Positions 16,166 to 58,652 of a DNA stretch of 64,000 nucleotides are shown piece after piece. The position numbers and the translations under genes are program-made. Source of the DNA: Candidatus Bathyarchaeota archaeon (lineage in GTDB: Archaea > Thermoproteota > Bathyarchaeia > 40CM-2-53-6); contig CAVTBR010000001.1 in the NCBI GenBank assembly GCA_963733055.1, positions 544,001 to 608,000 of the forward strand. The letters run 5' to 3'. How positions within the stretch are numbered: position 1 is the first letter of the stretch; each line of letters opens with the position of its first letter. The notes under the pieces are model-generated. The model was not told the DNA's origin. It worked only from the letters and a program-made list of their open reading frames with translations, and did not search any database.

Positions 16166-16217
16166 CGCGTTCGACCAATATTACTCTCGGACCGCCGAAT
16201 CTCTCCCTCAGCCTGAA

Positions 16218-29132: not shown

Positions 29133-29760
29133 TTTTCCTTCGTTACCTCTTCATGAGCTAACCTGATCGGGACCGGACCATGTGATGTGAGGCAGTGCTT
29201 GACAAGCTTAACCACGTCTTTCAAGGATATCTTGTGCCCCACACTGACATAGATGGTCTTCCCACTCCCCGGCAGAACCATACTCTCAGCTATCAGGCGA
29301 CCACGCTCATCCAACACACGATTCCCTTCCACTGAACCATAAAGTAGATTCTTCGCCACACCAATGGTAGGGCGGTCCAGAGCTAGGCCAACGAAACAGG
29401 CTAAACCAAACTTCCTCGGGTGAGCGCACCCATGAGCATCCACCATGCACACGAAGGAGCTAGCCCTCAGGTTGTGAATGGCTCGGAGCACCAGGGCCCT
29501 TCCCTGAACGCGAGAAGCCCTGGGATGTATGGGAACCTGGTGCGCTCCTTGATGGTTTTGATTCTTAGAGGTTGGAGGGTGTTGTAATCCGTCAGCACCG
29601 CTGCGGCTACGGTTGTTCCGTTGAAGTAGGTTGCGTCACAGCCGACCAGAGAAGTCAGTTTTGTTGGAAGGTCGCTTGTTTCTTCGACCTGTGGCGCAAG
29701 CCTTTCTTGCATTGCCGCTGCTTTTTTCGGGGAAATTTCCTTCGGTATCCTAATTCGCAT
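29096..29760 (-). CDS. nfi: Endonuclease V (one base missing near 29495)
   Basis: GCDATY, FPYIPGLLAFRE, VDAHGCAHPRKFGLA, IGVAK, IYVSVGH. Confidence 0.9.
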
Positions 29761-34969: not shown

Positions 34970-36031
34970 CTAAGGTTTCAACGCGATTCCATTCACCGCT
35001 ATTCTGCCGGGATGGTGCCATTCCCCTTCGACCTCGAATTTGATTTCGGCGATCATCTCGGCGACCTTAATGTTGGTTAGGGTGTGCATTGTGATTTCTG
35101 AAACTTGAATTGTCGACCGGCCCTCGGCGACTGCCATGTAGGGGATTAGGATGTCACCCATATGCCGATCCACGGGCGCTTTCGAAGCTAATTCCGTAAT
35201 CAATTTGGTTGCGGCCTCCTCCCCCACCGCTTCCGCCGGTTTACCCTTTTCTCCCAAGCTATCCGAACCCACTATCGCTCCGTTACCGAATTTCGCCAAT
35301 AACGTAACCCCGCTTCCAGGTGCAATATGCGGATCTTGGTTGGGGAGGTAGGTTTCGTTGGCAATATTCACCTGGGTGAAACCTTCTGAATTCAGTCTTT
35401 CCTTCGCGGCGTTCGTTTGTCTTTGGGCTACGTGGCTTGAGAGTCGGACGCAGTGGCTGATTCCCTCGATTCCCAACAGCTCTCCTCTTTCTATGAAGTT
35501 GGTGGCTTTGAGGGTTCGGGGTGGGTCTATGAAAATGGTTGCGTGGCCCCCACCTTTCGGATAGTGACCTCGGCGATCTACTTGGATGGTTGCCTGGTAC
35601 CCCATGTGTTGTAGTAGGGGGAGTTGGATTAGGCGAACGTAGTCTATGGTTGGGCTCCACCGCACATCCGTTCCACCCGTCAGGTCTAAGCTCACCCGGG
35701 TGGGTGCGTAGGCGGCCGCGGGCATGAGCGCTTGCAAAATCAACGGAATGCTACCGGCCGTGCCCACATCAAAACTCAACCGGCCCCCAACGTAACCCTG
35801 GGGGTTGAAGGTTAGTTCCCGTGAACCCGGGGTTAGGCCCATGGTTTCGGCGTTGCAAATGGCGGCGACGGCTTTCACGGCGACAACGTGCTGAGCCTGC
35901 AGGCCGGGGTTGGGGCGCTTGTCGCGGATCTTGGTGAGTTTGACGGGTTTTCCGGTGAGGGCGGATAGGGCTATGGTGGTTCGAACAATCTGGCCCCCAC
36001 CCTCCAACAGATCTCCGGATATTTCGAGCAT
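34970..36031 (-). CDS. rtcA: RNA 3'-terminal phosphate cyclase
   Basis: EGGGQIVRT, RPNPGLQAQH, TAGSI, GGTDV, RRGHYPKGGG, catalytic DRHMGD. Start placed at MLEISGD. Confidence 0.93.
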   Translation of the reverse strand: MLEISGDLLEGGGQIVRTTIALSALTGKPVKLTKIRDKRPNPGLQAQHVVAVKAVAAICNAETMGLTPGSRELTFNPQGYVGGRLSFDVGTAGSIPLILQALMPAAAYAPTRVSLDLTGGTDVRWSPTIDYVRLIQLPLLQHMGYQATIQVDRRGHYPKGGGHATIFIDPPRTLKATNFIERGELLGIEGISHCVRLSSHVAQRQTNAAKERLNSEGFTQVNIANETYLPNQDPHIAPGSGVTLLAKFGNGAIVGSDSLGEKGKPAEAVGEEAATKLITELASKAPVDRHMGDILIPYMAVAEGRSTIQVSEITMHTLTNIKVAEMIAEIKFEVEGEWHHPGRIAVNGIALKP

Positions 36032-36252
36032 GGTTGCCGTGGGGGGCGGATGGTTTGGGGGTTTGTATTGTTTGTGCGTGAGCGCATGGGGGAGAGCGAT
36101 TGCTGTTTTTCCACTAGGTGGAAAGGGGGCTGTTGCGACTGGTGGGGGTGGGGGGGTGTAGTTTTCTGGGGCAAACATGTTACTGTGCAGAGAGTGTTCG
36201 CGTCTTCAGGGTTTGGATTCTTAACGGCATCGAGATGAATAATGTGGCGAAG

Positions 36253-36420
36253 TTATTTTTCGACGGCTACGTCTATGTAGGTTTCAGCATCGTAAAGGAT
36301 TCCCTCTAACCCTCTGTGTCGACCGCTCTTCATGACGAGCCTCGGTTGGGACATTTTTCTGGCGAGGTAGATTATTCGTTTGCCCACGATGCCATCTCCC
36401 TCACCGATGAGAGTTGTCAT
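36253..36420 (-). CDS. Putative 55-aa protein coupled to the RHH gene
   Basis: MTTLIGEGDGIVGKRIIYLARKMSQPRLVMKSGRHRGLEGILYDAETYIDVAVEK. ATGA overlap with the upstream stop codon. Confidence 0.45.
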   Translation of the reverse strand: MTTLIGEGDGIVGKRIIYLARKMSQPRLVMKSGRHRGLEGILYDAETYIDVAVEK

Positions 36421-36770
36421 GAGGTCTCGCCTTTTGACTTGTGAATCTTGCCGGAATCAATCATGCGTTTGATTGCTTCTAGAGTTGTGCGGAGATCCAG
36501 GCCGAGTTCTTCAGCTATTTCGGAAGCAAAGTGTGAGCCTGGGTGCTTGGTTAGGTAGCCGTCGATAAGTTTCTCGGCGTGGGGACGCGAGGTGTCGCGA
36601 AGGGCGATTGGTTCGGCTTCTCTCAACTTGTCCCTTACCGCTTCCCTGGCGAAGTCGGCTGCGCTTCTGAAGATGCCGGCGTCAATCATTTCTTCTATTC
36701 TTCCATACTCTGATTGTGTGAGCCTCACCGCGATCTGGTAGGCTTGCTCCGTTCTAGACATAGTAGTCAC
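36417..36770 (-). CDS. CopG/Arc ribbon-helix-helix plus winged-HTH regulator
   Basis: QIAVRLT...IDAGIFRSAADFAREAVRDKL (RHH) and FASEIAEELGLDLRTT (HTH). Confidence 0.78.
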   Translation of the reverse strand: MTTMSRTEQAYQIAVRLTQSEYGRIEEMIDAGIFRSAADFAREAVRDKLREAEPIALRDTSRPHAEKLIDGYLTKHPGSHFASEIAEELGLDLRTTLEAIKRMIDSGKIHKSKGETS

Positions 36771-36808
36771 GCGTTGATTGTGCTACCAGGCGGTATATAT
36801 CTGTACCG
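36763..36808 (-). promoter_or_regulatory. TATA box with overlapping inverted repeats (candidate autoregulatory operator)
   Basis: TATATA at 36794-36799 lies inside CGGTA-N8-TACCG. An imperfect GTAG.CAC..GTGCTAC palindrome covers the start region. Confidence 0.4.
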
Positions 36809-36865
36809 TGGAAAAGGTGGCGGGTAGATGGGGGGGTTGCGGCCGTTGGGGGGCCGCGTGTTGTT

Positions 36866-37951
36866 TTATGGGTATGTTCGGGTGGTGCGGTGGATGAGTT
36901 GGGTTAGGTTCGCAGGGTTGACGGTTGGTAGTTGTATGTAGGTTAGGGCGCGGGTGCCGGTTAGGGTTGCGAGGCTGAGGGTTGAGAGGATGAGGTTGGT
37001 TGTTGCGAACGCGAGTAGGTTCAATGAGCCGGTTGCGTAGGCGGCGACGATCATTATTGTGCTGGCGGTGAGCCAGAGGGTTGAGGGGGTGAGGGTTAGG
37101 TGTGTTAGGTTGCGGCGTTTGATTAGTCGGGTTGTGATGTATGCGACTGGGGCGACGTATACGAGGCCGATTAGGGAGGCGGCGACTAGGCCGGCGGTTA
37201 TGGCGGCGGCTTCGGTGCTGATTGGGGCTATGAAGCCGTATGTGTAGTAGGAGGCGTATAGTATGCCGAGTAGTGGGATGACTGTGGTTTGGATGGCGGT
37301 GTATGCGTAGGGGTTTGTTGCGGCGGAGTAAGTGGCCGACGGGGCCCAGCTGTAGTACCAGGCGTTGAAGGTGGTTAGGAAGGTGCGGCCGGCGGTTGTG
37401 TTCTCGATTTGGTTGTTGCGGAAGTTGCGGAGGAATTGGGCGTAGGGTTGAAGCCTGTTACCGTTGGTCACGTAGCTGACCGGGCAGTTCGTCGTGCCCG
37501 TCACACCTTTCTGGGTTACGAGATTTGTGTAGGTGGCGGTGCTGGTTGAGGTGGAGGAGACGGTGGAGATGGCGGTGTTGCTGCTGGTTTGTGTGCGGGT
37601 GTAGATTGTGGAGTAGCTTGTGGTGGTTAGGGTCGTGCTGATGGTGCTGGTGTAACTGAAGAACGTGGAGGTGGTGGTGGCGGTTGTTGAAGTTGTTGAG
37701 CTGGATATGCTGGTGGATACTGTCGTGCTCGTAGATGATACTGTTGAGACACTGGTGCCAGTGTATTGGTAGCTGGTAGTGGAGCTTAGGGGAGGAGTCG
37801 AGACACAGCCGTTGATGCCGCAAGTTCCCGTAGCCACCGCTAAGTTCGCGGGGGAGCTAGTAGCCATCAAGGCGGCTAGGATGCCGACCATGAGTAGTAG
37901 GGCGACGGCTAGGGTTCGAGGATTCAATCTGCTCATCTTGTCAGGTTTCAT
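36866..37951 (-). CDS. Thr/Ser-rich surface protein with CFI-box-CTERM-like domain and C-terminal TM bundle
   Basis: Signal peptide, CGINGC, Pro-free T/S tract, CPVSYVTNG...FLRNFRN...TAGRTFLTTFNAWYYSWAP, four TM helices. ATG 37951 overlaps the upstream TGA. Confidence 0.75.
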   Translation of the reverse strand: MKPDKMSRLNPRTLAVALLLMVGILAALMATSSPANLAVATGTCGINGCVSTPPLSSTTSYQYTGTSVSTVSSTSTTVSTSISSSTTSTTATTTSTFFSYTSTISTTLTTTSYSTIYTRTQTSSNTAISTVSSTSTSTATYTNLVTQKGVTGTTNCPVSYVTNGNRLQPYAQFLRNFRNNQIENTTAGRTFLTTFNAWYYSWAPSATYSAATNPYAYTAIQTTVIPLLGILYASYYTYGFIAPISTEAAAITAGLVAASLIGLVYVAPVAYITTRLIKRRNLTHLTLTPSTLWLTASTIMIVAAYATGSLNLLAFATTNLILSTLSLATLTGTRALTYIQLPTVNPANLTQLIHRTTRTYP

Positions 37952-40900
37952 GTGAACAACCTCCTGAGTAACATCGGGATTAGTAACAGTAACGCCGCCA
38001 AGAGGCCGGTGCCGTCGATGCCGGGGACGGGGTTGAATGGTGTGGGTTGAGTTTGGAAGCCACAGGGCAGAGGCCCGCATGGCACGGTTGTGAATTGGGT
38101 TGTTGTGGAGTAAGTGACCGTGGTTTGCGTGTTGGTTGTAGAGCTGGTTGAGGTTATGACGGTGGTGGTCTGGCCGGAGACGGTGCTGACGGTGAAGTGG
38201 GTGTAGGTTGTGAAGAATATGCCCGTTGTACTGACGGTTGTGGATGAGAAGCTGAAGGTCGTGGCGACACTGGTTGTTGTAGAGCTCTGGGAGGTGGTTG
38301 TGGTAGCTGAACTTGTTGTTGTGCTGTACGTTGTGATTGTGCTTGCGAGGGTGACGCCGAGGAAGTTGGAAGCGAAGTCAAGGCTAGTGCCAGTGCAGGT
38401 TGGGGGACTGGAAGTTGTCTGTGCAGTGGGTGGGGTGCTGCACGCGGTTACCGTGATCAGGTAATAGCCCCCAGGCGCGTTGGGAGCCACATTGAACGCC
38501 CCAGCAACGTATCCGCTACCGATGGTACAGGTTACGGGATGGGTTAAGTCGAATAACGCGCCTGAGTTTGCGTCTATAGTGCAGTACCTGTCCTGCGGGT
38601 TGAAGCCGGCACCTGCAACCCCTACCGCCAGACCCTGTTCTACGCTGGCAGGATTCAATTGTATCAGGGCGGATGGTGAGCCTACTGTGAAGACGGCGGA
38701 CGCATTCGAACCCGTGTTATCTCCGACCTCGATGGCGTATGTGCCCGCAATAGCTGTTGAGGGTACGACGACGGAGCCCGAGACTTGGCCGAAGGGGTCA
38801 AGGGCGCAGCTCGGCTTGACTGTGGAGGCGTTGAATGATGGGATTACGGTGGCATTGCAGCGGGTGGCGTCCGACTCGAAACCTGTGCCGGTGTAGGTGA
38901 AGACTGAGTTGATTGTTCCGGATGTTGGGACGACGGTTATTTGGGCGGTTACGCCGAACGGTGCACCGATCGGGTGGCCTGGTGAGGCGGATAGGAGGTC
39001 GCTTGCGGGTGTTCCCTTTACGGTCACGTTCCAGTGAATGTCTTCAGTGGCGTACGGGCTGACCACGAAGGTGCCTTGTGCGGTCTGCGGGGCAGTGATG
39101 GAGCAGGTTGGGGAAGTTATCAGCGTATTATCCTGATCCGCCGGAGTAATGTCACCCTTGTAAGCTAAGATAATGCATCCCGTATCTGACGTCGACAGAC
39201 CATACGCCCTCACTACAACCGTCGCACCAGTAGTAGCGTTGGTTGGATAGAGATCGATTTCGGACACACCAGGGATGACGGTCAGAACGGCTTGAGCAAA
39301 GTCTCCCACGCTTGGAGCGCACCCATTGTTGCCGTTGCAACCCGTGATTTCAATCACATACTGACCCGGCGCAACCGCCGCGATGATGAAGCTGGCGTTA
39401 ACGTTGCCCGTTCCGACGGTGATAGCGCACCCAGACGATCCCGGAAGGATCGGGTTGGGAAGGCTGGGGCTGCTGACCGAGCATGACTGGTCCGTTGGGA
39501 GGAACCCAGTACCATTAACCACAATCTCCGACCCAATCACACCCGAAAGGGGCCTCAAGGAAATCTTAGGCCCACCCACAACTTTGAGATTGGCTTGCGC
39601 GAAGTCGCCGATGCTCGGAGCGCAGCCGTTGTTTCCGAGACAACCCGTAATCTCGATTACGTATTGCCCCGGGAGTACGTTTCCAATCGTGAAACTACCG
39701 TTAACGAGCCCAGTACCGACGCGAATAGTGCAGCTCGCTGAACCGGGCAAGATTGCGCCATGACCATTCGAGTCAAGCCCGACGGTTGAGACAGTGCAAC
39801 TTGTATCGGTGGGGAGGAAGCCAGTACCGTTGACTATGACATCCGTACCAGGCGAACCAGTCGACGGCCTCAAACTAATGCTAGGACCACCCACCACATT
39901 CAACACCGCCTGCGCAAAATCACCGACGCTTGGAGTGCATCCGTTGTTGCCGAGGCATCCAGTAATCTCGATTACGTATTGGCCGGGGAGCACATTACCG
40001 ATCGTGAAACTACCGTTAACGAGCCCTGTACCAACCCTTATGGCACAACCCGCGGAACCCGGCACAATTGCACTATGGCCGTTGGCGTCAAGCCCAACAG
40101 TTGAGATAGTACAGCTCGTGTCTGTGGGCAGGAACCCAGTACCATTAACGAGAACATGCGCACCCGGTGGACCAGACGACGGCCTCAAACCAATGTTAGG
40201 ACCGCCTACCACGTTGAGGATAGCTTGCGCGAAGTCGCCCGCGCTTGGAACGCAGCCATTGTTTCCGAGACAACCCGTAACCTCGATAATGTATTGTCCG
40301 GGGAGTACGTTTCCAACCGTGAAGCTTGCATTAACGACTCCGCTACCAACAGCTATTGCACAACCCGCCGTACCGCCCAAGATTGGGCCATGCCCATTAG
40401 CGTCAAGCCCGACGGCTGAAACACTGCAACTCGTATCTGTGGGCAGGAACCCAGTACCATTAATCTGAATATGCGCGCCAGGCTGACCGGTCGACGGCCT
40501 CACGCTAATCCTTGGCCCATTCACTACGTTCAATACTGCTTGTGCGAAATCACCAACGCTTGGAGCGCAGCCGTTGTTGCCTTGGCAGCCTGTAACCTCA
40601 ATCACATACTGTCCGGGGAGAACGTTTCCGATTGTGAAGCTACCATTGACGGCTCCACTACCAACGCTTATTGCACAACCCGCAGTGCCCCCCAAGATTG
40701 GGCTATGACCATTGGCGTCAAGCCCCACAGCCGAGATAGTACAACTACTGTCGGTGGGCAGGAACCCAGTACCATTAACGAGAACATGCGCACCCGGTTG
40801 ACCAGACGACGGCTTTAAGCTAATTATTGGACCACCTAACACATTCAAGACTGCTTGCGCGAAATCGCCGGCGCTTGGAGTGCAGCCGTTATTCCCAAGA

Positions 40901-43900
40901 CAACCCGTAACCTCAATCACATACTGCCCTGGAAACACATTCCCAATCAGGAAACTTCCGTTAACAACCCCACTACCAACAACTATAGCACAACCCGCAG
41001 AGCCCGCTAAGATTGGACCGTGCCCGTTCGAGTCTAGTCCGACGGCTGAGATTGTGCAACTCGTGTCCGTGGGTAGGAACCCGGTACCGTTAACGAGAAT
41101 GTGAGCACCCGTACGAGCGCTCTGGGGCCTTAGTGTTATCGCTGGCCCTTTCACCACGTTCAACACCGCCTGAGCGAAATCACCAGCACTTGGAACACAC
41201 CCGTTATTCCCACCGCAACCCGTAATCTCAATCACAAACTGACCCGGAAGCACATTACCAACAATGAAACTACCATTAACAGCCCCACTACCAACCTTAA
41301 TGGCGCAACCCGCCGTACCCGATAGGATTGCACTGTGACCATTAGCGTCAAGGCCGACAGTTGAGATCGTGCAACTCTGGTCCGTGGGCAAGAACCCAGT
41401 ACCGTTCACGAGAATGTGCGTACCAGGTTGACCGGTTGACGGATTCAACGTAATCGCTGGCCCACCAACAACATCCAACACTGCCTGCGCAAAATCACCA
41501 GCACTTGGGAAGCAGCCGTTATTCCCACCGCAACCCGTAATCTCGATCACGTACTCGCCGGGGAGAACGTTTCCAATCGTGAAACTACCATTCACGATTC
41601 CACTGCCAACATTTATGCCACAAGCAGCCGTACCCGCCAACAATGGACTGTGACCATTCGAGTCAAGCCCAACCGCTGAGACAGTGCAACTCGTATCCGT
41701 AGGCAGGAACCCAGTACCATTAACCAGGATGTGAGCACCAGTGCGGCCGCTCGACGGAATCAGCTTTATCACGGGCCCTTTCACCACGTTCAACACTGCC
41801 TGCGCGAAATCACCGGCACTTGGGAAGCAGCCGTTATTCCCAAGACAACCAGTTATCTCAATTACATACTGGCCGGGGAGAACGTTTCCAATCGTGAAAC
41901 TACCATTAACGACGCCCGTGCCGACCCTTATGCCACAAGCAGCCGTACCCGCCAACAATGGACTGTGACCATTCGAGTCAAGCCCAACCGCCGAAATAGT
42001 GCAGCTGGTATCCGTAGGCAGGAATCCGGTGCCGTTAACAAGAATATGAGCACCCGGTTGACCAGTCGAAGGAGTCAAACCAATCTTAGGACCACTAACT
42101 ACGTTCAATACTGCTTGCGCAAAATCGCCGGCGCTGGGGAAGCAGCCATTATTTCCACTACAGCCAGTGATCTCGATCACGTATTGACCGGGCAGTACGT
42201 TTCCAATCGTGAAACTACCGTTAACAACACCAGTACCAACCCTAATCCCACAACCCGCCGTACCCGACAAGATTGGACTGTGGCCGTTAGCGTCAAGCCC
42301 GACGGCTGAGATCGTACAACTCGTGTCTGTTGGTAGGAACCCAGTACCGTTGACCTGAACATGAACACCGGGTTGACCGGTCGACGGAGTCAAACCAATC
42401 TTAGGACCGCCCACCACGTTGAGTATGGCCTGAGCGGTGTCGATCAGGAGGTTCGTTGTGCTGGTGAATGTGGTTGTAGTGGAGGCGGTCGTTGCGGTGG
42501 TGGTGGTTGTGCTTGCGGTGAATGTGGTGGTTATGGTTGTGACGAGGCCTGATGAAGCGTCTATTTCGATCACATATTGACCTGGAGGTACGCTTCCGAC
42601 CGTGAAGCTAGCGTTCACAACCCCGCTTCCTTCGTGAATGACACAAGCCGCCGTCCCGGCCAAAATTGGATTAACAAGGTTGCTGGGACCACTCACAAGA
42701 ATGCAGGTAGTGTCTGAAGGAAGGAACCCAGTACCATTAACCTCAACATGCGTACCCGGCGCAGTCTGTGGAGGGAAACAGAGAGATCGATGGCCCGCTA
42801 ACAACGAAGAGTACAGCCTGCGCAAAATCACCAGCGCTCGGAGCGCAACCATTGTTGCCCAAACAACCAGTGATCTCAATCAAATACTGACCCGGCTGTA
42901 CATTAGAAACAATGAAACTGGCATTAACGAAACCCGTCCCAGCGTTGATGGCGCAAGCCGCGGTGCCCGGAACTATCACCTCGAGGGAGGCGGGGATACT
43001 CGAAACACTACACGAAGTATCTGTGGGCAAAAAGCCGGTACCGTTAACTTCGATATGGGCCCCTGTACGTGCGGTTGACGGAAACAACTTAATCGTTGGT
43101 CCACTCACTACGTTCAATACTGCCTGCGCAAAATCGCCGGCGCTAGGGAAACAACCGTTATTCCCGAGACAAGCCGTAATCTCAATCACGTACTGACCCG
43201 GAAGCACGTTACCAATCGTGAAACTACCGTTAACGATTCCGGTGCCAGCCCTAATTCCACAAGCCGCCGTACCAGCCAACAATGGACTATGTCCATTCGC
43301 ATCAAGACCAACAGCCGAGACAGTACAACTCGTATCTGTGGGTAGGAACCCAGTACCGTTGACTAGTATATGCGCGCCAGGCTGACCGGTCGACGGCTTC
43401 AAACCAATCACTGGCCCACTAACCACGTTCAACACTGCTTGCGCAAAGTCACCAGCACTTGGGAAACAACCATTATTCCCACCACAAGCCGTAATCTCAA
43501 TCACGTATTGACCGGGGAGAACATTTCCGATCGAGAAACTACCATTGACCGCACCACTACCAACCTTAATTCCACAAGCCGCCGTACCAGCCAAGATTGG
43601 GCTATGGCCGTTAGCGTCAAGCCCCACGGCTGAAACCGTGCAACTAGTATCGGTCGGCAAGAATCCGGTACCGTTAACTAGAATATGCGCACCGGGTTGA
43701 CCAGTCGACGGCTTCAAACCAATGACAGGACCATTCACAACATTCAGCACTGCCTGCGCGAAGTCTCCTGCACTTGGGAAACAGCCGTTATTCCCGAGGC
43801 AACCCGTAATCTCAATCACATACTGACCCGGAAGCACGTTCCCGATCGAGAAACTACCATTGACCGCACCACTACCAACCTTAATTCCACAAGCCGCCGT

Positions 43901-45019
43901 ACCAGCCAACAATGGACTGTGACCATTCGAGTCAAGCCCGACTGCTGAGACAGTACAACTCGTATCTGTGGGTAGGAACCCAGTACCGTTGACTAAGATG
44001 TGCGCGCCAGGCTGACCGGTCGACGGCTTCAAACCAATCACTGGCCCACTAACCACGTTTAGCAACGCTTGCGCAAAGTCACCAGCACTTGGGAAACAAC
44101 CATTATTCCCACCACAACCCGTGACCTCAATCACATACTGACCCGGAAGTACATTGCCAACGGTGAAACTACCGTTAACTACGCCGGACCCAGCATGAAT
44201 CACACAAGCCGCAGAACCAGCCAACAGTGGGCTATGCCCATTCGCATCAAGCCCAACGGCTGAGATCGTGCAACTCTGATCCGCGGGCGAGAATCCCGTA
44301 CCGTTAACCTGAACATGAAGACCAGTCTGACCAGCCGGCGGAGTCAAAATTATTCTTGGACCAGTCGTGACTGTGAATTCTTGTTGTGCGAAATCGCCCA
44401 CGCTGGGTGCGCATCCATTGTTGCCGGTGCATGCGGTTATCTCAATTACATAGTTATCCGGTGGGACTGGACCAGCAATGAAAGTGCCGTTTCCCGATCC
44501 ATTGCTTACAACACACGCAGCAGATGTGACAACCGACGGGTTTGTTGGGCTGGAGACCGAGCAACTTGTATCGGTAGTCGGGACGCCGGTAATGGTGAAT
44601 TTTACGTCAGTTCCCGAAGGGCCAGATGTTGGTGTGAGGACGAGGCCAAAGTTGTCTACGTTGAAGGAAGCTTGACCTGAATCGCTAGTCGGATTACCAG
44701 TCACCGTAATGGTATAGGTACCAGCCCCCACGCTGGCAACTGTGAAGGTAAACGTTCCTGCTCCACCACTCAGTGAACAAGATGAAGGATTACTTACGGG
44801 CGTTCCGGAAGCCGTACAACTCGTGTCTGATCCACTAAATCCTGAAAGCGTAACCGTGATGAGCGTGCCGGGACGCGCGTGAGTCGGACTTGGAGTGACG
44901 GTCGGAGCCGACTGAACGGGCGTGAATATGTTGGACTGTGCGATCGTCGCCGCGAAAGCGGATAGAATCAGGAGCAGTGTGACTAAGTATTTGATCCGGC
45001 GCAGTCTCAACTCAAGCAC
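37948..45019 (-). CDS. Giant secreted surface protein (~2,350 aa) with ~21 Cys-containing Ig-like (IPT/TIG-like) domains (one extra base near 42765)
   Basis: Signal peptide, ~105-aa repeats (P.I.L.PS.G..G..I.VNGTGFLPTD.SC...C...VNGSF.IGNVLPGQYVIE.TGC.GNNGC.PS.GDFAQA.L.V), Thr-rich stalk, VPGI-TM-RR C-terminal anchor. Confidence 0.85.
39280..44370 (-). repeat. Intragenic tandem repeat array, ~315-bp unit, about 16 copies with the NGTGF motif
   Basis: The motif ggaacccagtacc(a/g)tt recurs at ~315-bp spacing. Long near-identical stretches occur, e.g. 43321-43364 vs 43951-43994. Confidence 0.9.
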
Positions 45020-46240: not shown

Positions 46241-47521
46241 TTAATCCTGGTTTCCGGTTACGAACTTGTATCCCCTTTCCATTTCCTCATCCCAAGAGTT
46301 CTGAACTGCGGTCTTCAATCCGTTTTCGAATAGTTCCCTCCTCAATTGGTAACTGTTGAGTAATTGCTCGAAGCTCTCCACAATCCCGGTCATGGTGGGA
46401 GTGCATAAAATGCAATTTTGACCGTTCCTCAGGACAGATCGATGTGCCGGGTAGTCATTGGTAACTACCGCACAGCCCGAAGCCATTAATTCGAATGGAA
46501 TGACTCCTGGATGGGGAGTGAACATTAGGTTAAGGGCCGCATCACACGATCTGTACAGTTCCGCGGTATCTTCCAATGAGAGAAAACCTAGATGCTTGAT
46601 CTCCTCCCGAATATCCCATTGTTCAAGATTCGCCCCAGCCGTCACGATTTCAATTTCAGGGTAGGCCCTCTTTATCCTTTCAAGAGACTGAATTCCTAAA
46701 TCAAATCCATTTCTGGGCATCAGGGGCCTTGCAAAGAAGAAGATTTTCTGCAGTTTCTTGCGCGGATGCTTCACATTCGGATGGTAGAGAGTTGTGTCTA
46801 CACACGGGTTGAATGCTACCGCCTCTCCGCCGTAGGTTTTGACGTACCAGTCTTTGAGGGGTTGTGCTGTAGCTATTGCTTGAAACCCGAAATGGTAGGT
46901 AAGCTCGGCCAGCGCTGACCATGGTCCGGCCTCATAAAATAAAGCCTCGTTGTCTTGTATGAAGTAGAATTTGCCAAGTGTGTTGTTGAATTTCAGAAGT
47001 GGGTAGGCGGTGGCCCAGAAGGTGGCGAAACTAACGTCGGCGTATGGTATAGCATTCAAATCGGGATTTCGATAAGTCTTCGCTCCGCGAAGCGCAGGGA
47101 AACGTTCACCAAATTTAGACGCAATAAGATCCTCAGTTGTTGGGTTTTCACCGATAATTATGAAATTGTTCTGTATCCCTTTTCGTCCGAGATAATCGGC
47201 GAATCTGAAGATGTTCATTATTCCGGCGTAAACTTCGGGAAAATCTGGGATAAACCAGTTCACAGAGGTAATTCTTCGGTTATCGGTCTTTTTCCAAGAC
47301 TCTATGATCCTTTGATTTTCTTTGAGATCGCGTTCGGTGAAGTCGTATGCGGCGAGTCGTCGGTCAATATAGTGGAACTTGCTTCCTGATGTGAGTCGAT
47401 CTGCGGCGCTTACTTCAATTTCTTTTGATAGTTCTCTACTGGAGTACATTAGCAGGGCTGCTAGAAATCTTCGGAGGCCGAACTTCTTCAGGTACCGATA
47501 TGCGAGACCTACTTTGGACAT
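46241..47521 (-). CDS. GT4 glycosyltransferase, WsaF-like (rhamnosyltransferase family)
   Basis: YAGIMNI, ATFWATA, YFIQDNEALFY, FFARP..PRNGFDL, LMFTPHPGVIPFELMASG. Confidence 0.8.
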   Translation of the reverse strand: MSKVGLAYRYLKKFGLRRFLAALLMYSSRELSKEIEVSAADRLTSGSKFHYIDRRLAAYDFTERDLKENQRIIESWKKTDNRRITSVNWFIPDFPEVYAGIMNIFRFADYLGRKGIQNNFIIIGENPTTEDLIASKFGERFPALRGAKTYRNPDLNAIPYADVSFATFWATAYPLLKFNNTLGKFYFIQDNEALFYEAGPWSALAELTYHFGFQAIATAQPLKDWYVKTYGGEAVAFNPCVDTTLYHPNVKHPRKKLQKIFFFARPLMPRNGFDLGIQSLERIKRAYPEIEIVTAGANLEQWDIREEIKHLGFLSLEDTAELYRSCDAALNLMFTPHPGVIPFELMASGCAVVTNDYPAHRSVLRNGQNCILCTPTMTGIVESFEQLLNSYQLRRELFENGLKTAVQNSWDEEMERGYKFVTGNQD

Positions 47522-47611
47522 GAAATCACGTGCGGATTATTCCGATGCTTCTTGATCAAGGCTGAAGCTTCACAGATAAAACCTCGTCGAGCCGGGAAGC
47601 GGTGAGAGTCA

Positions 47612-49108
47612 TCATTTTGAATGGTTTAGGCGCTTTGCAAGACCCCAACAAATCAAGGATATAACCGCTATCGCTGCCAGGAAGATGACTACGCGGAGGG
47701 CGCTAAAGTTGCTGCAACTTGCCAAGGCACCAAGACAGAGCTTGTTCAGGACCGCGATCCGCTGCTGAAGTGTGTTGTAATCCCAGTAAACACTTGATAA
47801 GAGACATGCCCTGTATGCGGGATCGTTCATGTGGTGCAGACAATTTAGATTCATTAGCATAGTGAGGTGCAAACTTACACCCCTCTCAAATCCATCCACA
47901 TAGCCAAGAAACAGACTTACCACAAAGAGACTGAGAAAAGTGGTACGACCGTAGCGCAAACGTGTGGTGGTGGTTGTACGAGAGCTCACAGCGAACGATC
48001 GCATTATGATAACGAAACCTGGTATCAGGAAGAGTACAGAGATCGCCACGTAACGTGACGAAACCGCATAGCCTAGACCTGCAAACCCAAACCTACCGAA
48101 AGCAGTTACAACTCCAGATATCACCGCAAACGCGGCCATCTGCAACCAAGGCGTTAGGAGCGAAAGCCCGTGCCGGACACGGTAGATTGCCGCCACGAAT
48201 GCGAAAGAGTATAGAACCCCGACGACAAGGCTTCCGTATTCACTGTTTGGGGAGTAATACCAAAAGAAATGGATGAGGAGATTGTGAAAATTTAGGCTCA
48301 TCACTTCGTTCATAGTTGGAGTCCAAGCCCCCAGACCGGCTCCAAGGTAAGTAAAGACGAACTCGAGTACACTAAACGGCTCTAGCGTGAGCGATCCTGA
48401 GAATCCTCCGGGGATCCAAAGCTTGAGGTAAGTTAAGGTTGCAACGCATCCTGCAACTAGCCATCCGCAAAGGAAAATGATCTTTCTTCCGTGACTGAGT
48501 CGTAGGAAACTTCCTAGTCCGACTGGCCAAACTATCAGACCAAGAAGGCTGGAGAAGGAGGCTAGATATGCGAATAATAATGCGAGTAAGAATGCAGCTG
48601 AACCTCGCGGGAGATGCCAAAGAAAATAGATGCTCAGGAGGAGAAATGACGTTGTCATGTACCATTGAAGAGGAGAAAAACCTGAAACAAAATTCCCGGA
48701 TTGCTCAAACAGGAACAGGAGCCAAGAGACAGGCACGATCAGCCAAGTTGAATTAGGGACAGTTTCCTTAAGCAACCTCCACAGGACTACTAGACTTACG
48801 TTGATCAGGAACCAGCCCGTTAACATTTCCCAAACGACATTCCATGATGTAAGAACGGCGTTGACCACCATCACGAGTCCCGGAAAGACAACAAGATGTT
48901 CATTATGGGGCAAGACGAGGTTACTTAACCAAGGTCCACCTTCGAAGAACGCTTGAACCAGTGGGATGAATTGGATTTCGTCCCAAACGATTACGTTAAC
49001 TCCGAATCTGATGATGAAAATCAACGTCAGAAGAGATGGAAGAACGGCGCCAAAGATCTTCCAACTCATGAAACGCTTTAACGAATAGAGATTTGGCCCA
49101 GAACTCAT
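47612..49108 (-). CDS. Polytopic membrane protein, putative GT-C glycosyltransferase
   Basis: First loop VNVIVWDE...HNEHL, SFSSLLGLIVWP, GRFG...SSRY, ~12 TM. Paralog of 53512-55334. Confidence 0.6.
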   Translation of the reverse strand: MSSGPNLYSLKRFMSWKIFGAVLPSLLTLIFIIRFGVNVIVWDEIQFIPLVQAFFEGGPWLSNLVLPHNEHLVVFPGLVMVVNAVLTSWNVVWEMLTGWFLINVSLVVLWRLLKETVPNSTWLIVPVSWLLFLFEQSGNFVSGFSPLQWYMTTSFLLLSIYFLWHLPRGSAAFLLALLFAYLASFSSLLGLIVWPVGLGSFLRLSHGRKIIFLCGWLVAGCVATLTYLKLWIPGGFSGSLTLEPFSVLEFVFTYLGAGLGAWTPTMNEVMSLNFHNLLIHFFWYYSPNSEYGSLVVGVLYSFAFVAAIYRVRHGLSLLTPWLQMAAFAVISGVVTAFGRFGFAGLGYAVSSRYVAISVLFLIPGFVIIMRSFAVSSRTTTTTRLRYGRTTFLSLFVVSLFLGYVDGFERGVSLHLTMLMNLNCLHHMNDPAYRACLLSSVYWDYNTLQQRIAVLNKLCLGALASCSNFSALRVVIFLAAIAVISLICWGLAKRLNHSK

Positions 49109-49230
49109 AAAGCCAACCTGCTGTGACGTCGTGAATAAAGTATTGTCTCAACGTTGTGAAACGACTTGAAGTTCATTGCTCGAAAAGCGGGATGCGAAAT
49201 CATTTAGGTTCATCGCCTGAGTGACTCTCC

Positions 49231-50985
49231 ATGGTCCTCCTAGCAGTAGCCGTAGCCGTTTTCGTTCCAATTCTCTACTACATCCCTGGCGGGGCTATAA
49301 CACGTCTCTTGAGATTGCAAAGGGAGAGGATTAACTTGTATTCTTATGCAGTGTCAACTTTGGTCTACGCTTCAGTCGCGATTTTAGGACACCTGCTTGG
49401 TGTGGGCCAAGTTACATTGATGGAATTAGTTGTGAGTTCCACCCTGATTGTTTGCGTGGTTATGCTCGCGAGAGTGGTTCGGTCCGGAACCATTGTTAGC
49501 GAAGCTAAAACCTTCCTCGGGAACCAAGTAATGCTGATTCTGGTCGCTGGATTTGTGCTCAGAGTCTTGCTAAGCGGATTGATTTCCGATTTTTGGCGAG
49601 GAGGAGACTGGTATTTCTTTCATTATGACACCGCTTTAGTGCTGTTAACAAACTCCTGGAATATTTCGCCGGATCGTACACCATTGTTCAGTCTCATCTC
49701 CGCCATGTTTATGTCAATATTTGGCAGTGAATTTTGGGTAGCGCAGATTGTCGGTGACTTTCTTAACGCCCTTTTCCTAATTCCATCCTATTACATCAGT
49801 AAACAGCTTTTCGGGCAAAATACCGCAATAAGCGCGCTAATATTCTTGTCAGTGCTACCCTACTTCACTTACAACGCGATCTACTATTGGCCCAAGCTCT
49901 TCGCAACATACTTCGTGCTGCTCTCCTTCTACGAGATGCTCGCTATCTTACGCCAAAAACCGGTCAACTGGCCACTATACATGACCAGTGCAGCATTGGC
50001 TGTCCTGGCCCATGAATATGCGCTGGTGTTTGGGATTTCCGGAGTGATCATTGGTCTAGTCTACAGAAAGTTGGATTACTCAGGATTCTTACGGGGGGCG
50101 ATCTGCCTTGTTGGGATTATGTCACCGTGGTGGGTGTACAATCTCATCACATTTGGAACTCCAATTGCCTCGTCGTTCAGGTATTACCCGTTCGCTGTAG
50201 GAGGGTTCGCAGCGATTCCTCCTGCCGTACCTACGGCCGAGTTTTATAGACAATTCTTCGCGACGCCCATTTCAACATTGATTTGGATGAGAGTAAGTAA
50301 TCTCTTAGTCACCTACATCCCTCTTCTCGGGCTTCTAGAGAAGTACGTTGCAATACCATACCTACCCAGAATCGATGTGGCAATATGGGGATTCGAATTC
50401 GTCTACCAATTCTATAGCATCGACTCACTTTTTGGCGCGCTGACTATTTCTCTGTCGATATTTCTGCTAATTTTCCTCCGACACGCACGTCTTAACAATA
50501 TAGTTAAACTGATTGGCGGATACGTTACGATCTCTTCAATCCTACTGACTCTTCAGTGGGGATGGTTCATGTCAGGCAACTTGGGATTTGGAAACCAAGG
50601 ATTGTTCCCAGCATTCACGCTCTTGACGATCTTGTCGGTCGCGGGTCTTGAGAGAATTGGTAAGGATCGCGCCTTCGTCTTCATTGGCAGCATTTTTGAG
50701 ACCGCTCTTTTCTATGTTTTCTTACTAGCAACCGGAAACTCTAATCTGGAGGAACCGACGCGCGTGACGTTATACTACCAATTTACCGAACATTGGACCG
50801 AGCATTGGCCGTTAGCCTGCTTCGTAGTTCTAATCATAGCATTCTACTTTTGTATTCTAGCTGGCTATGACCAGCCATGGAAAACTGTTTACTCTCGGAT
50901 CGGGAAAATTGTAGATCGGACTCATCACAACAGCTCCCACGAGGTCATCTCCCGAGCCGATGAGGTCGGTAAAAGCGTACACTGA
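49231..50985 (+). CDS. GT-C (ArnT/PMT_2-like) glycosyltransferase
   Basis: GGDW, DRTPLF, YYWPK and many TM segments. Confidence 0.68.
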   Translation: MVLLAVAVAVFVPILYYIPGGAITRLLRLQRERINLYSYAVSTLVYASVAILGHLLGVGQVTLMELVVSSTLIVCVVMLARVVRSGTIVSEAKTFLGNQVMLILVAGFVLRVLLSGLISDFWRGGDWYFFHYDTALVLLTNSWNISPDRTPLFSLISAMFMSIFGSEFWVAQIVGDFLNALFLIPSYYISKQLFGQNTAISALIFLSVLPYFTYNAIYYWPKLFATYFVLLSFYEMLAILRQKPVNWPLYMTSAALAVLAHEYALVFGISGVIIGLVYRKLDYSGFLRGAICLVGIMSPWWVYNLITFGTPIASSFRYYPFAVGGFAAIPPAVPTAEFYRQFFATPISTLIWMRVSNLLVTYIPLLGLLEKYVAIPYLPRIDVAIWGFEFVYQFYSIDSLFGALTISLSIFLLIFLRHARLNNIVKLIGGYVTISSILLTLQWGWFMSGNLGFGNQGLFPAFTLLTILSVAGLERIGKDRAFVFIGSIFETALFYVFLLATGNSNLEEPTRVTLYYQFTEHWTEHWPLACFVVLIIAFYFCILAGYDQPWKTVYSRIGKIVDRTHHNSSHEVISRADEVGKSVH

Positions 50986-50997
50986 ATAGGGAAAACG

Positions 50998-52368
50998 ATG
51001 ATGTTGGTGTACCGCGACAAAATCGCAAAACTTCTCCTAGTCACCATAATTTTGACGTATGTTGTCGTCGCGTGCCTCTTCAGTTTCACCGTGCCATTGT
51101 ATGAGGCCCCAGACGAACCTCACCATCTATTGTATGTTGACTTCATCGCCGCAAATCATAGATTACCGAACCTAAACACCGCAGACAGGGCTAGTGTTCC
51201 GAACGAAGGATATCAGCTCCCGCTCTACTATGTTTTGGCGGCCGGGCTGCTTAATCTCCTTGGTAGAAGTCGAGTCGACCCAGCAATACAGATAAATCCG
51301 GCTTATCTTGCGGGCGTACCTAACGTGCTGAATGAATATCTTCATTCACCCAACGAGTATCTCCAACCAGACGCCCTAGTAGTGCATTTCCTACGGCTTT
51401 TCTCCATACTTTGGGGCGCCGTGACAGTATATCTAACCTACAAGATCGCTCGCACCATACAGCTAGAGACTTACATAGCGCTTCTCGCGGCCGCGATCAA
51501 CGCCTTCATTCCAGAGTTTCTCTTTCTAACTGGAATCGTGAGCAATGACAGCATGTCTTGGGCGATGTCCTCATTGGTCATACTACTAACCTTACGCTTG
51601 TACATGAACAAAGACGTAGATTGGCACAATATCCTCTATTTGGGAGTGGCATTGGGCGCAGCTTTACTGACGAAAGCGACTTTGATAATTCTCATCCCCT
51701 TCGTCATTGCAGTGATCATCCTGAAGGCCTCTTCAGGAGAGGGACGGAGAATTAGACCCAAACTCTTCAAAGTTACGTTGAGCTTGGTTGTGATAGTCGC
51801 GTTGTTGGCGGGATGGTGGTACGTTAGAAGCATTGTACTCTACAATGATTTCACGGGGTTGAAGATGTGGGTGGAACTCAACCCATCTCTGATTGTAAAG
51901 AAGAGCATCTGGTCACCATACTTTGAAACAATCTTTCCGATTTGGGTATTCTCGAGCTTTTGGGCAGTTTTTGGATGGATGGATGTATGGCCTAATCAAA
52001 TCTTCTTCGTGTTTTACGGTATGCTCTGCTCGGTAGGAGGAATTGGCGCAATTGTAGAAACCTTTGACCCGTCGGGTACTCCGAGTTCAGGTTCGAAAAT
52101 AAGGCTTACGCAATTGATGCTAATTGGTTTCTTCGCGCTCGCTCTTGCTGCACTCATTTGGGCAAACTTAACAATAAGTATGCCCCAAGGCCGGGAACTC
52201 TTTGACGCGCTATCCGCAGTTTGCATTCTCTTGGCTCAAGGATTGAGCCGTGCTCTCAGAACAAAATCCGACTGGTTTCCACGCATCGTCCTCTCAGGAT
52301 TAGTGGTTGTGATGTTCGCCCTGAGCATTCATTTCCTACTCTTCCTTAGAGCCATCTACGCGATATAG
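50998..52368 (+). CDS. GT-C (PMT_2/DUF2142-like) glycosyltransferase
   Basis: EAPDEPHH, QLPLYY, LRLFS, VSNDS, LLTKAT, QGRE. Confidence 0.75.
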   Translation: MMLVYRDKIAKLLLVTIILTYVVVACLFSFTVPLYEAPDEPHHLLYVDFIAANHRLPNLNTADRASVPNEGYQLPLYYVLAAGLLNLLGRSRVDPAIQINPAYLAGVPNVLNEYLHSPNEYLQPDALVVHFLRLFSILWGAVTVYLTYKIARTIQLETYIALLAAAINAFIPEFLFLTGIVSNDSMSWAMSSLVILLTLRLYMNKDVDWHNILYLGVALGAALLTKATLIILIPFVIAVIILKASSGEGRRIRPKLFKVTLSLVVIVALLAGWWYVRSIVLYNDFTGLKMWVELNPSLIVKKSIWSPYFETIFPIWVFSSFWAVFGWMDVWPNQIFFVFYGMLCSVGGIGAIVETFDPSGTPSSGSKIRLTQLMLIGFFALALAALIWANLTISMPQGRELFDALSAVCILLAQGLSRALRTKSDWFPRIVLSGLVVVMFALSIHFLLFLRAIYAI

Positions 52369-52423
52369 GAGGCATAGCGGTTGCCAATCTTATTCGGCAC
52401 CTTGCGCAAGGCAAGATGCAAAT

Positions 52424-53398
52424 ATGGACATGGATTGCTTGCGCAACATGTTAAGCGGAGTCAATACACACTTGAACCCCGAAAAACCTGAACCTGTGCG
52501 AGTTCTGCTTGACGTCTACGAGAGGCGCCCCGACCTTCAAGAAGCTTTTCCAGAGGTGAAGAACCGAAATCTTCAACGTCTCATCAACTGGGCAGCAGCA
52601 GTTGTTTCGCAAGGAGGTTTCGAAACCGATTATTCAACGCTACTTGCTCATCGTTCTTGGTACCTTGCCAATGCCAACAAGGTTCGAGCGACGCATATTT
52701 TTGCGGACATTCTCTTGCATGTAAACAAACCACTGGTTCATGCGTTGAAAGGTCTCTTCGATGCCAATGCCAACGAAAACAAGATTCGAGAATCGCAAGA
52801 TATTTTTGAAGACATTCTCTTGCATGTAAACCAACCACTGGTTCATTCGTTGAAAGGTGTCTTCGATGAAACCGATATTTCAGAACACCTAACAACGCTT
52901 TCTATGTTGAGTGTAGAGTTTGAACTGAGGAATATATTGGAGCTAGGAGTGCGAACCGGAGAATCCACGGTTGCACTTACCGAAGCGGCGTCAGCAATAG
53001 AGGGTCACGTTTTCAGTGTGGATCTGTACGACTGCGTGGAGGCAAAGAGAAGAATCCGTGACTTCGGCTTGGAGAAGCGTTGGACATTCATCCAAGGTAA
53101 CGATCTGGAGGTAGCCGCTGAATGGACAACTCCCATCGATCACTTGTTCATAGACACAACGCATCTTTATTCTCACACCCTTCTCGAGCTTGAGGCCTTT
53201 GAATCCCACGTTCGGAAAGGAGGCTTCATCTCATTGCATGATTCGGTTTCGTCTACGGGCGTGATAGAGGCGGTAAAAGAATTTGTCCGACGGCATGCTG
53301 GCAGGTTTCGGTTTTATCATTACGTCAACTCTAATGGGTTGACTGTTCTGAGAAATGTTGGCTTAAGCAGCGGAGAACGGAATGTAACATCGTTCTAA
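52424..53398 (+). CDS. Class I SAM methyltransferase (Methyltransf_24-like) with N-terminal RPDLQ module and internal duplication
   Basis: ILELGVRTGEST, SVD, FIDTTHLY, GGFISLHD. Confidence 0.8.
   Translation: MDMDCLRNMLSGVNTHLNPEKPEPVRVLLDVYERRPDLQEAFPEVKNRNLQRLINWAAAVVSQGGFETDYSTLLAHRSWYLANANKVRATHIFADILLHVNKPLVHALKGLFDANANENKIRESQDIFEDILLHVNQPLVHSLKGVFDETDISEHLTTLSMLSVEFELRNILELGVRTGESTVALTEAASAIEGHVFSVDLYDCVEAKRRIRDFGLEKRWTFIQGNDLEVAAEWTTPIDHLFIDTTHLYSHTLLELEAFESHVRKGGFISLHDSVSSTGVIEAVKEFVRRHAGRFRFYHYVNSNGLTVLRNVGLSSGERNVTSF
52695..52868 (+). repeat. Two 69-bp direct repeats 105 bp apart inside the methyltransferase gene
   Basis: 52695-52763 vs 52800-52868 encode IFADILLHVNKPLVHALKGLFD and IFEDILLHVNQPLVHSLKGVFD. 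Confidence 0.9.
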
Positions 53399-53511
53399 CC
53401 AAAAGTAAGGTTTCTCCGCGGGTTTGTCACGACGTGAAAAACCTGACGACTCTAGAAGATGAATCGGTCTTAGGGCCGATTAGGTTTAGCGGAGTTTCGG
53501 GACGCGCATTG

Positions 53512-58592: not shown

Positions 58593-58652
58593 GCAGAATT
58601 TGTGAGATGTACGACTTAGACGGCCCTCGTCAACCTTTGGTAGAGAAATATA

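Follow-up and report, generated by a model that had tools for sequence, protein, structure and literature searches.

The window analysed here, a 64,000-nt stretch of contig CAVTBR010000001.1 of a Candidatus Bathyarchaeota archaeon of soil or peat, contains a pair of overlapping genes (region 36866–45019) that probably encodes a genus-conserved, translationally coupled surface module. The first gene codes for a giant protein of immunoglobulin-like (Ig-like) domains, which we read as a rod-like, glycosylated fibril with a C-terminal anchor, similar in type to fibrillar adhesins. The second gene codes for a smaller protein (hereafter, the partner), which would be its dedicated membrane base. The anatomy of the two proteins, the conservation of the pair, the overlap of the genes, the homology of the partner to anchors that occur in cis in other proteins and the prediction of an Ig-like fold were established directly. 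Both genes are located on the minus strand, all coordinates are positions in the window and open reading frames (ORFs) were called under translation table 11. G000 denotes the source genome assembly (2.88 Mb, three contigs), other G numbers (e.g., G013) denote assemblies of relatives, and P numbers denote proteins.

The original prediction, made from the letters of the stretch, had described a single giant of ~2,350 aa whose stop codon overlaps the start of a second gene. In the assembly, three ORFs (758, 1643 and 404 aa) and not two were found in the region. The first two, ORF A and ORF B, are pieces of the giant gene, and the single giant holds only if one base near 42762–42764 is skipped, a break that had not been mentioned. 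Read through this break (with X at the junction), the giant comprises 752 + 1604 residues (~2356 aa), including 78 cysteine residues and 39 N-X-S/T sequons; its start codon is uncertain (GTG at 45019). The described series of ~21 Ig-like domains, mostly of 105 aa and with conserved Cys, NGT and GLD(A/S)NGH motifs, was confirmed by motif counts and by the 315-nt tandem arrays listed in Table 1. There are two divergent N-terminal domains, 16 repeats and three divergent C-terminal domains; NGTGF was found in 16 repeats with a period of mostly 105 aa, C.GNNGC in 16 and GLD[AS]NGH in 13. The Thr-rich stalk, CGPLPC, transmembrane (TM) helix and RR tail that had been described are all present, as a Ser/Thr stalk of ~100 aa, CGPLPC, a hydrophobic helix and LLRRLFT. 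The TGA of the giant (37948–37950) and the ATG of the partner (37949–37951) overlap as ATGA, in agreement with the overlap that had been noticed. Since the partner starts at this ATG, its length is 361 aa (36866–37951), and not that of the 404-aa ORF starting at 38080. The N-terminal hydrophobic segment, CGINGC, stalk, CFI-box-like domain and TM bundle attributed to it were all found, with four predicted TM helices and a sub-threshold CFI-box score.

Orthologues of the partner were found at E ≤ 1e-67 in 12 of the 22 congeners, together with fragments in G008, and a search of 18 genomes of other genera revealed matches to the anchor module only, with no full-length orthologue. A large ORF ending in LRRL[FLV] directly precedes the partner gene in all 12 congener loci, and a 4-nt overlap of the stop and start codons (xTGA) was present in 13/13 loci, i.e., the window and the 12 congeners (ATGA in two, TTGA in 11). 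The pairing, proposed for checking in the original prediction, is thus kept across genomes. The neighbouring genes vary from clade to clade, so what is conserved is the gene pair itself. In addition, the motif CGPLPC of the giant tail and the motif CG[IV][NS]GC of the partner were both present in 8/8 loci and both absent in 5/5. Among 251 proteins with the repeat of the giant (alignment A1, see below), a search with regular expressions revealed 57 with an LRRL[FLV] tail, 23 with a PGF-type tail and 14 with a CFI-box fused in cis. These cis fusions are a Rosetta-stone link of ectodomain to anchor. That the giant binds the partner is suggested by the coupling of the two genes, the conserved tail, the co-varying motifs and these fusions. 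A complex prediction with the whole partner and the last 100 aa of the giant gave a score of 0.00 in two runs without controls, which weighs neither way. The proposal of a co-translated surface protein with a dedicated anchor therefore stands as a reasonable reading of the conserved overlap and of the 14 cis fusions, while the physical binding is what we infer.

The partner was compared with the NCBIfam model CFI_box_CTERM (NF041770) and scored 27.2 bits (hmmscan) and 30.6 bits (genome search), below the cut-off of 40. Seven other CFI-box loci of G000 were above the cut-off (44.6–80.2 bits), and none of them adjoins a repeat gene. These canonical ORFs contain a signal peptide, an ectodomain, a Ser/Thr linker, the motif series C[LFI]IATATYGS...LRNFRD...AGxxF...FNAWYYSFSP and hydrophobic helices (3–4 hydrophobic segments in a hydropathy scan). 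The partner aligns over their whole module of head and TM helices (~190 aa), from which it follows that the anchor is larger than the curated 69-position CFI-box model, which spans just its head. The signature residues of the canonical ORFs (Cys, LRxFR, AGxxF, FNxWYYSxxP) are kept in the partner, and the head differs, with CPVSYV(TNGN) against C[LFI]IATA(TYGS). Its domain order fits the CFI-box type: a low-complexity linker, a head near the C-terminus and TM segments. In 40 homologues of the partner, residues C156, L174, R175, F177, R178, A187, G188, F191, F195, N196, W198, Y199, Y200 and P204 were invariant, and the Ser/Thr stalk was unusually highly conserved. The partner is a stand-alone version of this anchor (stalk, CFI-box head and four TM helices) without an ectodomain, while in other surface proteins of G000 the same module sits C-terminally.

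Modeling of the partner using AlphaFold2 led to an N-terminal helix, a low-confidence stalk and a helical region at residues 157–357 with a predicted local distance difference test score (pLDDT) of 70–87. A structure search with this model found generic helical hairpins only (Z ≤ 8.3, below the level for helical proteins), and in the ESM Atlas only unnamed clusters of Bathyarchaeota and Nitrososphaerota were found (0.82–0.88). In a set of 5.8 billion proteins, there were 169 homologues of the partner at E ≤ 0.001. The CFI-box itself was detected in 56 of the 201 genomes sampled across the phylum, including 26/26 genomes of one family, with up to 16 matches per genome. A search of the literature library for the term 'CFI-box-CTERM' did not find a paper.

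The giant and the partner could also be merely co-transcribed and independent of each other, the partner being a short 'stalk-only' CFI-box member with its own role. This agrees with the position of the seven other CFI-box genes of G000 away from repeat genes, with the TM segment that the giant itself carries and with the absence of computational support for binding. However, the 4-nt overlap is kept in 13/13 loci though the flanking genes vary by clade, the giant tail is conserved (invariant D, L and RRL) far beyond the need of a plain anchor, the paired CX4C motifs co-vary, and the same repeat is fused in cis to a CFI-box elsewhere. Independence of the two proteins is therefore considered quite unlikely, and a coupled pair is preferred.

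In order to describe the repeat, 30 copies from the window and four congeners (G016, G003, G002 and G004) were aligned (A1). In this alignment, Cys31 is invariant and Cys53 is almost invariant. The CxGNNGC loop is an insertion found in 14/14 aligned repeats of the window and in 2/16 repeats of the congeners. The repeats of the window are 76–91% identical to one another, as against 43–65% identity with the congener repeats in A1. Repeat number and length vary by species, the length being ~92–96 aa in G016 and 108–112 aa in G003. Repeats that are homogenised within a genome and variable between species follow the concerted-evolution pattern of extensible stalks. The 54 homologues of the giant have lengths of 910–2083 aa, and the same tail is kept among those listed.

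AlphaFold2 applied to A1 predicted a seven-strand sandwich with a pLDDT of 92.3, so the structure prediction that had been recommended returned an Ig-like fold. Foldseek with this model found nanobody-type Ig V domains alone (E ~1e-4). Exhaustive structure alignment placed FdeC (Z 8.3), InvE (8.0), InvD (7.8) and invasin (7.5) at the top; the EBF3 IPT/TIG domain had a Z of 7.5 with a root-mean-square deviation of 2.6 over 76 residues, and many Ig-like matches had a similar Z. Overall, the prediction points to an Ig/IPT-like sandwich of a generic kind. The Pfam search of the 30 single repeats gave nothing significant (best E 0.0013, no gathering score reached), in line with the earlier remark that the repeat family was not recognised. 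TIG (PF01833) matched 3 of the 30 single repeats with a best E of 0.006, below the Pfam gathering threshold, and a TIG search of both giant ORFs gave no match at E ≤ 0.1. At the level of the whole protein, the Pfam scores for NOMO_6th, EMC7 and fn3_3 merely add up weak matches on one beta-hairpin, and no stretch passes alone.

The profile search that had been advised was fruitful: the A1 profile matched 1042 cluster representatives among 1.84 billion at E ≤ 0.001, of which 91 reached E ≤ 1e-30; a single protein had up to 30 repeats. Nearly all of the proteins with this repeat are named 'hypothetical protein' and come from metagenome-assembled genomes of Bathyarchaeia; one weak match is named beta strand repeat-containing protein and comes from Nitrosotalea. 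Out of 17 profile matches scanned against Pfam, six scored to TIG (e.g., P0240, 368 bits). The repeat forms a family without a Pfam model of its own. The two N-terminal domains of the giant are divergent (63% identity to G013, with a ratio of nonsynonymous to synonymous substitution rates, dN/dS, of 0.217); they belong to the same fold family and matched no known binding domain. Paralogues with the same repeat also occur in G000. One of them (L041, G000:C3:330406–331728) has 440 aa, the N-terminus of the giant and a Loki-CTERM end, and two others (C1:638253–638876 and C1:1251980–1252624) have ~210 aa and two domains without an anchor.

The giant gene is split by an extra T in the context GAC-T-GCG near 42763, which is not a homopolymer. 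The two pieces share a stretch of DNA that each reads in its own frame: ORF A ends in ...GPSISLFPSTDCAGYAC-stop, and the frame of ORF B reads ...TAPGTHVEVNGTGF... over the same bases. The final ~6 codons of ORF A ahead of its TGA are out of frame, and the frame of ORF B is truly coding only from ~42762 on. When one base at 42762–42764 is skipped, a repeat of normal length is restored. Most likely, the extra base is an assembly error, because neighbouring genes are split as well, the NCBI protein P0272 is in frame across the break (GPSIGLSPGSDAPGAHVEVNGTGF), 5/5 metagenome contigs that bridge it (three public runs) are without one base at 42762–42764, dN/dS downstream of it is low and intact orthologues exist (P0275, P0276, P0278 and P0286; 1980–2083 aa). 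Note that the bridging contigs are relatives, mostly of <95% identity, and that soil, peat, wetland and sediment metagenome runs contained only small shares of the sampled words (0.10 or less); one of the four sequencing runs was an RNA library, which provides no evidence of transcription. The dN/dS against G013 was 0.076 over 227 codons just downstream of the break in the frame of ORF B and 0.097 just upstream in the frame of ORF A, the same DNA giving 0.83 out of frame; across all four segments tested it was 0.076–0.256.

At least four other housekeeping genes of the window are split too: Lhr helicase (3159–4385/4099–6012), the proteasome beta subunit (30467–30841/30684–31082), a TP_methylase gene (26671–27114/27041–27493) and a P-type ATPase (13747–14706/14738–16165). 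The proteasome gene contains a private 1-nt insertion in G000 and a private 2-nt deletion in G013 when compared in four congeners, the other three of which are intact. A 1-nt insertion private to G000 also breaks the TP_methylase gene, of which G013 has an intact copy; in Lhr, the breaks of the two assemblies lie at different sites. Both assemblies are indel-rich, and their frame breaks should not be taken as biology without reads. The endonuclease V ORF of the window (29096–29491) belongs to the split or truncated genes as well and begins at profile position 77.

The case for an assembly error has its difficulties. G013 shares the extra base at the same site (L021, G013:C1, near 10230), the DNA of the two being ~86% identical over the matched stretch. 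Three further breaks were compared in the two assemblies and none was common to both, and a random-error model leaves the common base unexplained. A genus-wide DNA search found the break junction in G013 only. The common base may stem from base calling that errs systematically, or it may be a real insertion that both genomes have; a +1 frameshift site is the least likely option. If the break were real, the gene would be a decaying pseudogene or code for a truncated secreted fragment, or the ribosome would shift by +1 at GAC-U-GCG in this lineage. The same base at the same site in two assemblies ~14% apart over the matched stretch, the lack of a homopolymer and the unshared other breaks speak for this. 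It is nevertheless judged unlikely: the low dN/dS after the break is that of the downstream frame, which is open for 1643 codons; the proteasome gene carries private indels in both assemblies and the G013 copy of the giant at least three further breaks; the base is missing from P0272 and from all bridging contigs; and no slippery or re-pairing site was evident at the break by eye. A real +1 frameshift site, taken by itself, is highly improbable. Exact searches of metagenome and genome contigs with 23 nt from downstream of the break gave no match, and neither did a degenerate back-translated pattern. A model of two polypeptides, with ORF B starting from TTG at 42879 and a chance hydrophobic leader, was rejected, since this stretch is selected in the frame of ORF A (dN/dS 0.097) and its counterpart in G013 contains Glu and Pro.

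The original prediction had hinted that the C-terminal VPGI-TM-RR end of the giant is a PGF/PEF-type archaeosortase signal. In that case, the tail would be cut off and a lipid anchor would take its place. This found no support and is regarded as very improbable. The end has the tripartite look of such a signal (PGI, a hydrophobic stretch and RR), and G000 contains three exosortase/archaeosortase-family genes above the TIGR04178 cut-off, none of them at a subtype cut-off, so the archaeosortase that it was suggested to look for is present. In addition, the 440-aa paralogue L041 matches Loki-CTERM (23.6 bits against a cut-off of 19.9), which also served as a positive control. However, none of the CTERM models matched ORF B at E ≤ 0.1. 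In 12 orthologues, the position before the TM helix is occupied by PGID, AGVD, GPFAD, SDEF, SDGF or PYD, with only D being invariant. Finally, a regular-expression search of G000 ORFs of at least 60 aa found the giant tail to be unique (the second match is a 99-aa ORF without such a tail), against at least 12 PEF + TM + RRR tails and five IPGFP + TM + RRR tails (PGF/Loki-type). The motif D..GLLA.L..P..LRRL is invariant or nearly so in the 12 orthologues, and the reading that fits the tail best is an ordinary TM helix that is nevertheless specifically conserved. At two places in G000 (C3:306002–307232 and C1:655295–657624), an archaeosortase-family gene adjoins a gene with a PEF + TM + Arg tail; these neighbours are likely enzyme–substrate pairs.

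All these characteristics allow us to propose how the module may work. The first gene would give one secreted polypeptide of ~2356 aa, in which a signal peptide is followed by 21 Ig-like domains, a stalk, a CX4C motif and one C-terminal TM helix. Each of the 16 repeats contains the conserved Cys pair and most of them the extra CxGNNGC loop and two N-glycosylation sequons. The product would be a long glycosylated rod, anchored at its C-terminus, with the divergent N-terminal domains held far from the cell. Two parts of a fibrillar-adhesin layout, the 315-nt Ig-like arrays and the C-terminal hydrophobic helix anchor, are present in the giant. The xTGA overlap could ensure that both proteins are made in a fixed proportion, and the partner would serve as the membrane base into which the single-pass tail of the giant docks, the two co-varying CX4C motifs possibly latching one to the other. 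As a tentative extension, with a lower probability than the module itself, we suggest a split CFI-box anchor that works without archaeosortase: the D..GLLA.L..P..LRRLF tail may insert into the four-helix module of the partner, and CGPLPC and CG[IV][NS]GC may form a latch by disulfides or a shared metal site. Glycosylation of the giant is plausible because STT3/AglB is encoded in G000 and GT1, GT2 and PMT_2 genes lie nearby. The surface location of the two proteins, their binding to each other and their role in adhesion are likewise putative.

The glycosylation genes form an island upstream of the giant gene (46241–63457), with a GT1/WsaF-like gene (46241–47521), three PMT_2-type GT-C genes (49231–50985, 50998–52368 and 55831–57270), a methyltransferase gene (52424–53398) and two GT2 genes (58685–61411 and 61721–63457). 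Glycosylation genes of a similar kind flank the module in G013 and G015.

Several points weigh against reading the pair as an anchored fibril with a membrane base. Its range is patchy (12 of 22 congeners, or 13 with the G008 fragments, and 0 of 18 genomes of other genera). The giant has a TM helix of its own, and the need for a separate anchor is not obvious. No adhesive or enzymatic tip domain was recognisable in the giant by Pfam. The Z values of the repeat matches (7–8.3) are in a range commonly met for the aligner, and the co-variation of the CX4C motifs may reflect a single evolutionary event among kin. Contact between the two proteins, their export, glycosylation and ligand binding are, moreover, features that we infer.

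The main rival is a two-component surface layer (S-layer) similar to SlaA/SlaB, in which the giant would form the outer lattice and the partner the stalk that anchors it. The layout fits, with co-oriented neighbours that encode a large protein rich in Ig-like domains and sequons and a small stalk-and-membrane protein. SlaA and SlaB are described as adjacent, bicistronic, glycosylated and non-covalently associated (PMC5744192). An S-layer was seen in a cultivated Bathyarchaeia strain by electron microscopy (PMC10477458), and co-expressed accessory proteins can anchor archaeal S-layers according to another report (bioRxiv 10.1101/2024.05.28.596244). On the other hand, 16 near-identical tandem repeats of species-variable number and length suit an extensible rod more than a lattice unit, and an S-layer protein would be expected to be universal, while orthologues were found in 12–13 of the 22 congeners and in none of the genomes of other genera. 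The TM helix of the giant itself and the lack of a match of either protein to a Pfam or NCBIfam S-layer family also speak against a lattice. The S-layer explanation is ranked below the fibril, since the repeats are homogenised and vary in length and the module is distributed patchily, and its probability is considered low, similar to that of two independent proteins. A fibril with its own membrane base therefore remains the preferred reading of the pair.

The positions of the features described above are collected in Table 1.

Table 1. Features of the giant gene and the partner gene in the window.
Feature	Position	Strand	Comment
ORF A (758 aa), N-terminal part of the giant gene	42743–45019	-	Signal peptide, two divergent Ig-like domains, first repeats
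Predicted N-terminal signal peptide of the giant, RRIKYLVTLLLILSAFAATIAQS	44939–45019	-	Read by eye; the intact orthologue P0275 starts alike
Ig-like tandem array, 315 nt (105 aa)	43097–44276	-	3.7 copies, 80% matches; Tandem Repeats Finder
Frame break, one extra base, GAC-T-GCG (coding strand)	42762–42764	-	Base removed: ...FPSTD-APGTHVEVNGTGF...
ORF B (1643 aa), C-terminal part of the giant gene	37948–42879	-	Repeats, three divergent domains, stalk, TM tail
Internal Thr-rich linker of the giant	42454–42540	-	After the sixth NGTGF domain
Ig-like tandem array, 315 nt (105 aa)	39596–42420	-	9.0 copies, 76% matches; Tandem Repeats Finder
Membrane-proximal Ser/Thr-rich stalk of the giant, ~100 aa	38062–38379	-	Ends in the CX4C motif CGPLPC (38062–38079)
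C-terminal TM segment of the giant, GLLAALLLLIPMLL, and RRLFT tail	37951–38007	-	
Partner gene, 361 aa	36866–37951	-	ATG at 37949–37951
N-terminal hydrophobic segment of the partner	37862–37912	-	Signal peptide or signal anchor
CX4C motif of the partner, CGINGC	37805–37822	-	
Ser/Thr-rich stalk of the partner	37487–37804	-	Residues 50–155, 65% S/T
CFI-box-like head of the partner	37271–37486	-	Residues 156–227, from the invariant Cys156 (CPVSYVTNGN...LRNFRNN...AGRTF...FNAWYYSWAP)
Four predicted TM helices of the partner	36938–37312	-	Residues 214–338, followed by a short C-terminal helix

The GC skew reaches +0.35 at positions 36001–38000 of the window, and this is attributed to the Thr-rich (ACN) minus-strand coding of both stalks and not to a replication signal. 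Downstream of the partner gene, the window contains a helix-turn-helix gene (36417–36770) and then RtcA (34970–36178). In the G003 clade (L024 18426–19730, L025, L015 and L016), two more small genes follow the partner gene, encoding a protein of ~220–230 aa with a signal peptide and a protein of ~200 aa with a C-terminal TM helix; neither is located downstream in the window. Two further differences from G013 were observed. The FttA gene (KH, metallo-beta-lactamase and beta-CASP domains; 7603–11043) contains an intein with a LAGLIDADG domain at residues 369–859, which is absent in G013, as the alignment with it skips 8658–10178. The P-type ATPase region (13750–16672) is without a counterpart in the syntenic part of G013, where the alignment jumps over ~140 bases of G013.

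Bathyarchaeia are among the most abundant archaea of sediments and soils, and to our knowledge, no envelope protein of this group has been characterised. In the literature consulted, their envelope is described only by an S-layer and a sheath seen in electron microscopy (PMC10477458) and by predicted Bathyarchaeia S-layer proteins that are referred to without names (bioRxiv 10.1101/2024.05.28.596244). The module is a concrete and conserved candidate for a long surface fibril of Bathyarchaeia with its membrane base, and the newly defined repeat family extends to 1042 cluster representatives without its own Pfam model. Both proteins were unannotated, and in the translationally coupled CFI-box anchor, which stands alone, known kinds of parts are arranged in a new way. 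The curated but unstudied CFI-box-CTERM is the head of a ~190-aa anchor that is usable in cis or as a separate gene, and its function thereby becomes directly testable. If the split anchor is true, it will be the first functional handle on a family found in 56 of the 201 genomes sampled.

A comparison with SlaA/SlaB of Sulfolobales, which are an adjacent, co-transcribed pair of a large beta-sandwich-rich glycoprotein and a small Ser/Thr-rich membrane stalk protein (PMC5744192), indicated a similar organization: here, too, adjacent genes encode a large beta-sandwich protein and a small membrane protein with a Ser/Thr stalk. However, the two systems have no sequence family in common. The giant has its own TM helix and homogenised tandem repeats, the C-terminal part of the partner is a CFI-box head with four TM helices instead of a coiled coil with one TM helix, and the module is confined to one genus among the genomes searched.

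The partner resembles CFI-box-CTERM proteins (NF041770) in its invariant Cys, the series LRxFR...AGxxF...FNxWYYSxxP and the TM module that follows. It differs in its lower score (27.2–30.6 bits, <40), in the head sequence CPVSYVTNGN and in a CX4C peptide and stalk in place of an ectodomain. The tail of the giant, like PGF-, PEF- and Loki-CTERM ends, is a C-terminal hydrophobic helix with Arg, and same-repeat paralogues use a Loki-CTERM tail. Unlike these ends, it matches no CTERM model, has no conserved P[GE]F and is unique in G000. With IPT/TIG domains (PF01833), the repeat may share an Ig-like E-set sandwich; it opens with P-x-I-x-L-x-P-x-x-G...V-x-V-x-G-x-G-F, and distant members of the repeat profile score to TIG (P0240), while the repeats of the window are below the TIG threshold (3/30 matched).

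Bacterial fibrillar adhesins with Ig-like stalks include the invasin/intimin, FdeC and Bap/SiiE types, and their working definition combines a stalk of similar tandem Ig-like domains, a cell anchor and a distinct adhesive tip domain. The giant differs from them in its archaeal host and in its C-terminal TM helix, which takes the place of an outer-membrane barrel or LPXTG, and an adhesive tip domain was not identified in it. Its repeats contain a Cys pair, the CxGNNGC loop and two sequons, with 5–20% identity to the adhesin structures. Nevertheless, like these adhesins, the giant consists of many tandem Ig-like domains whose number varies between species, and the top structural matches of its repeat were FdeC, InvE, InvD and invasin (Z 7.5–8.3).

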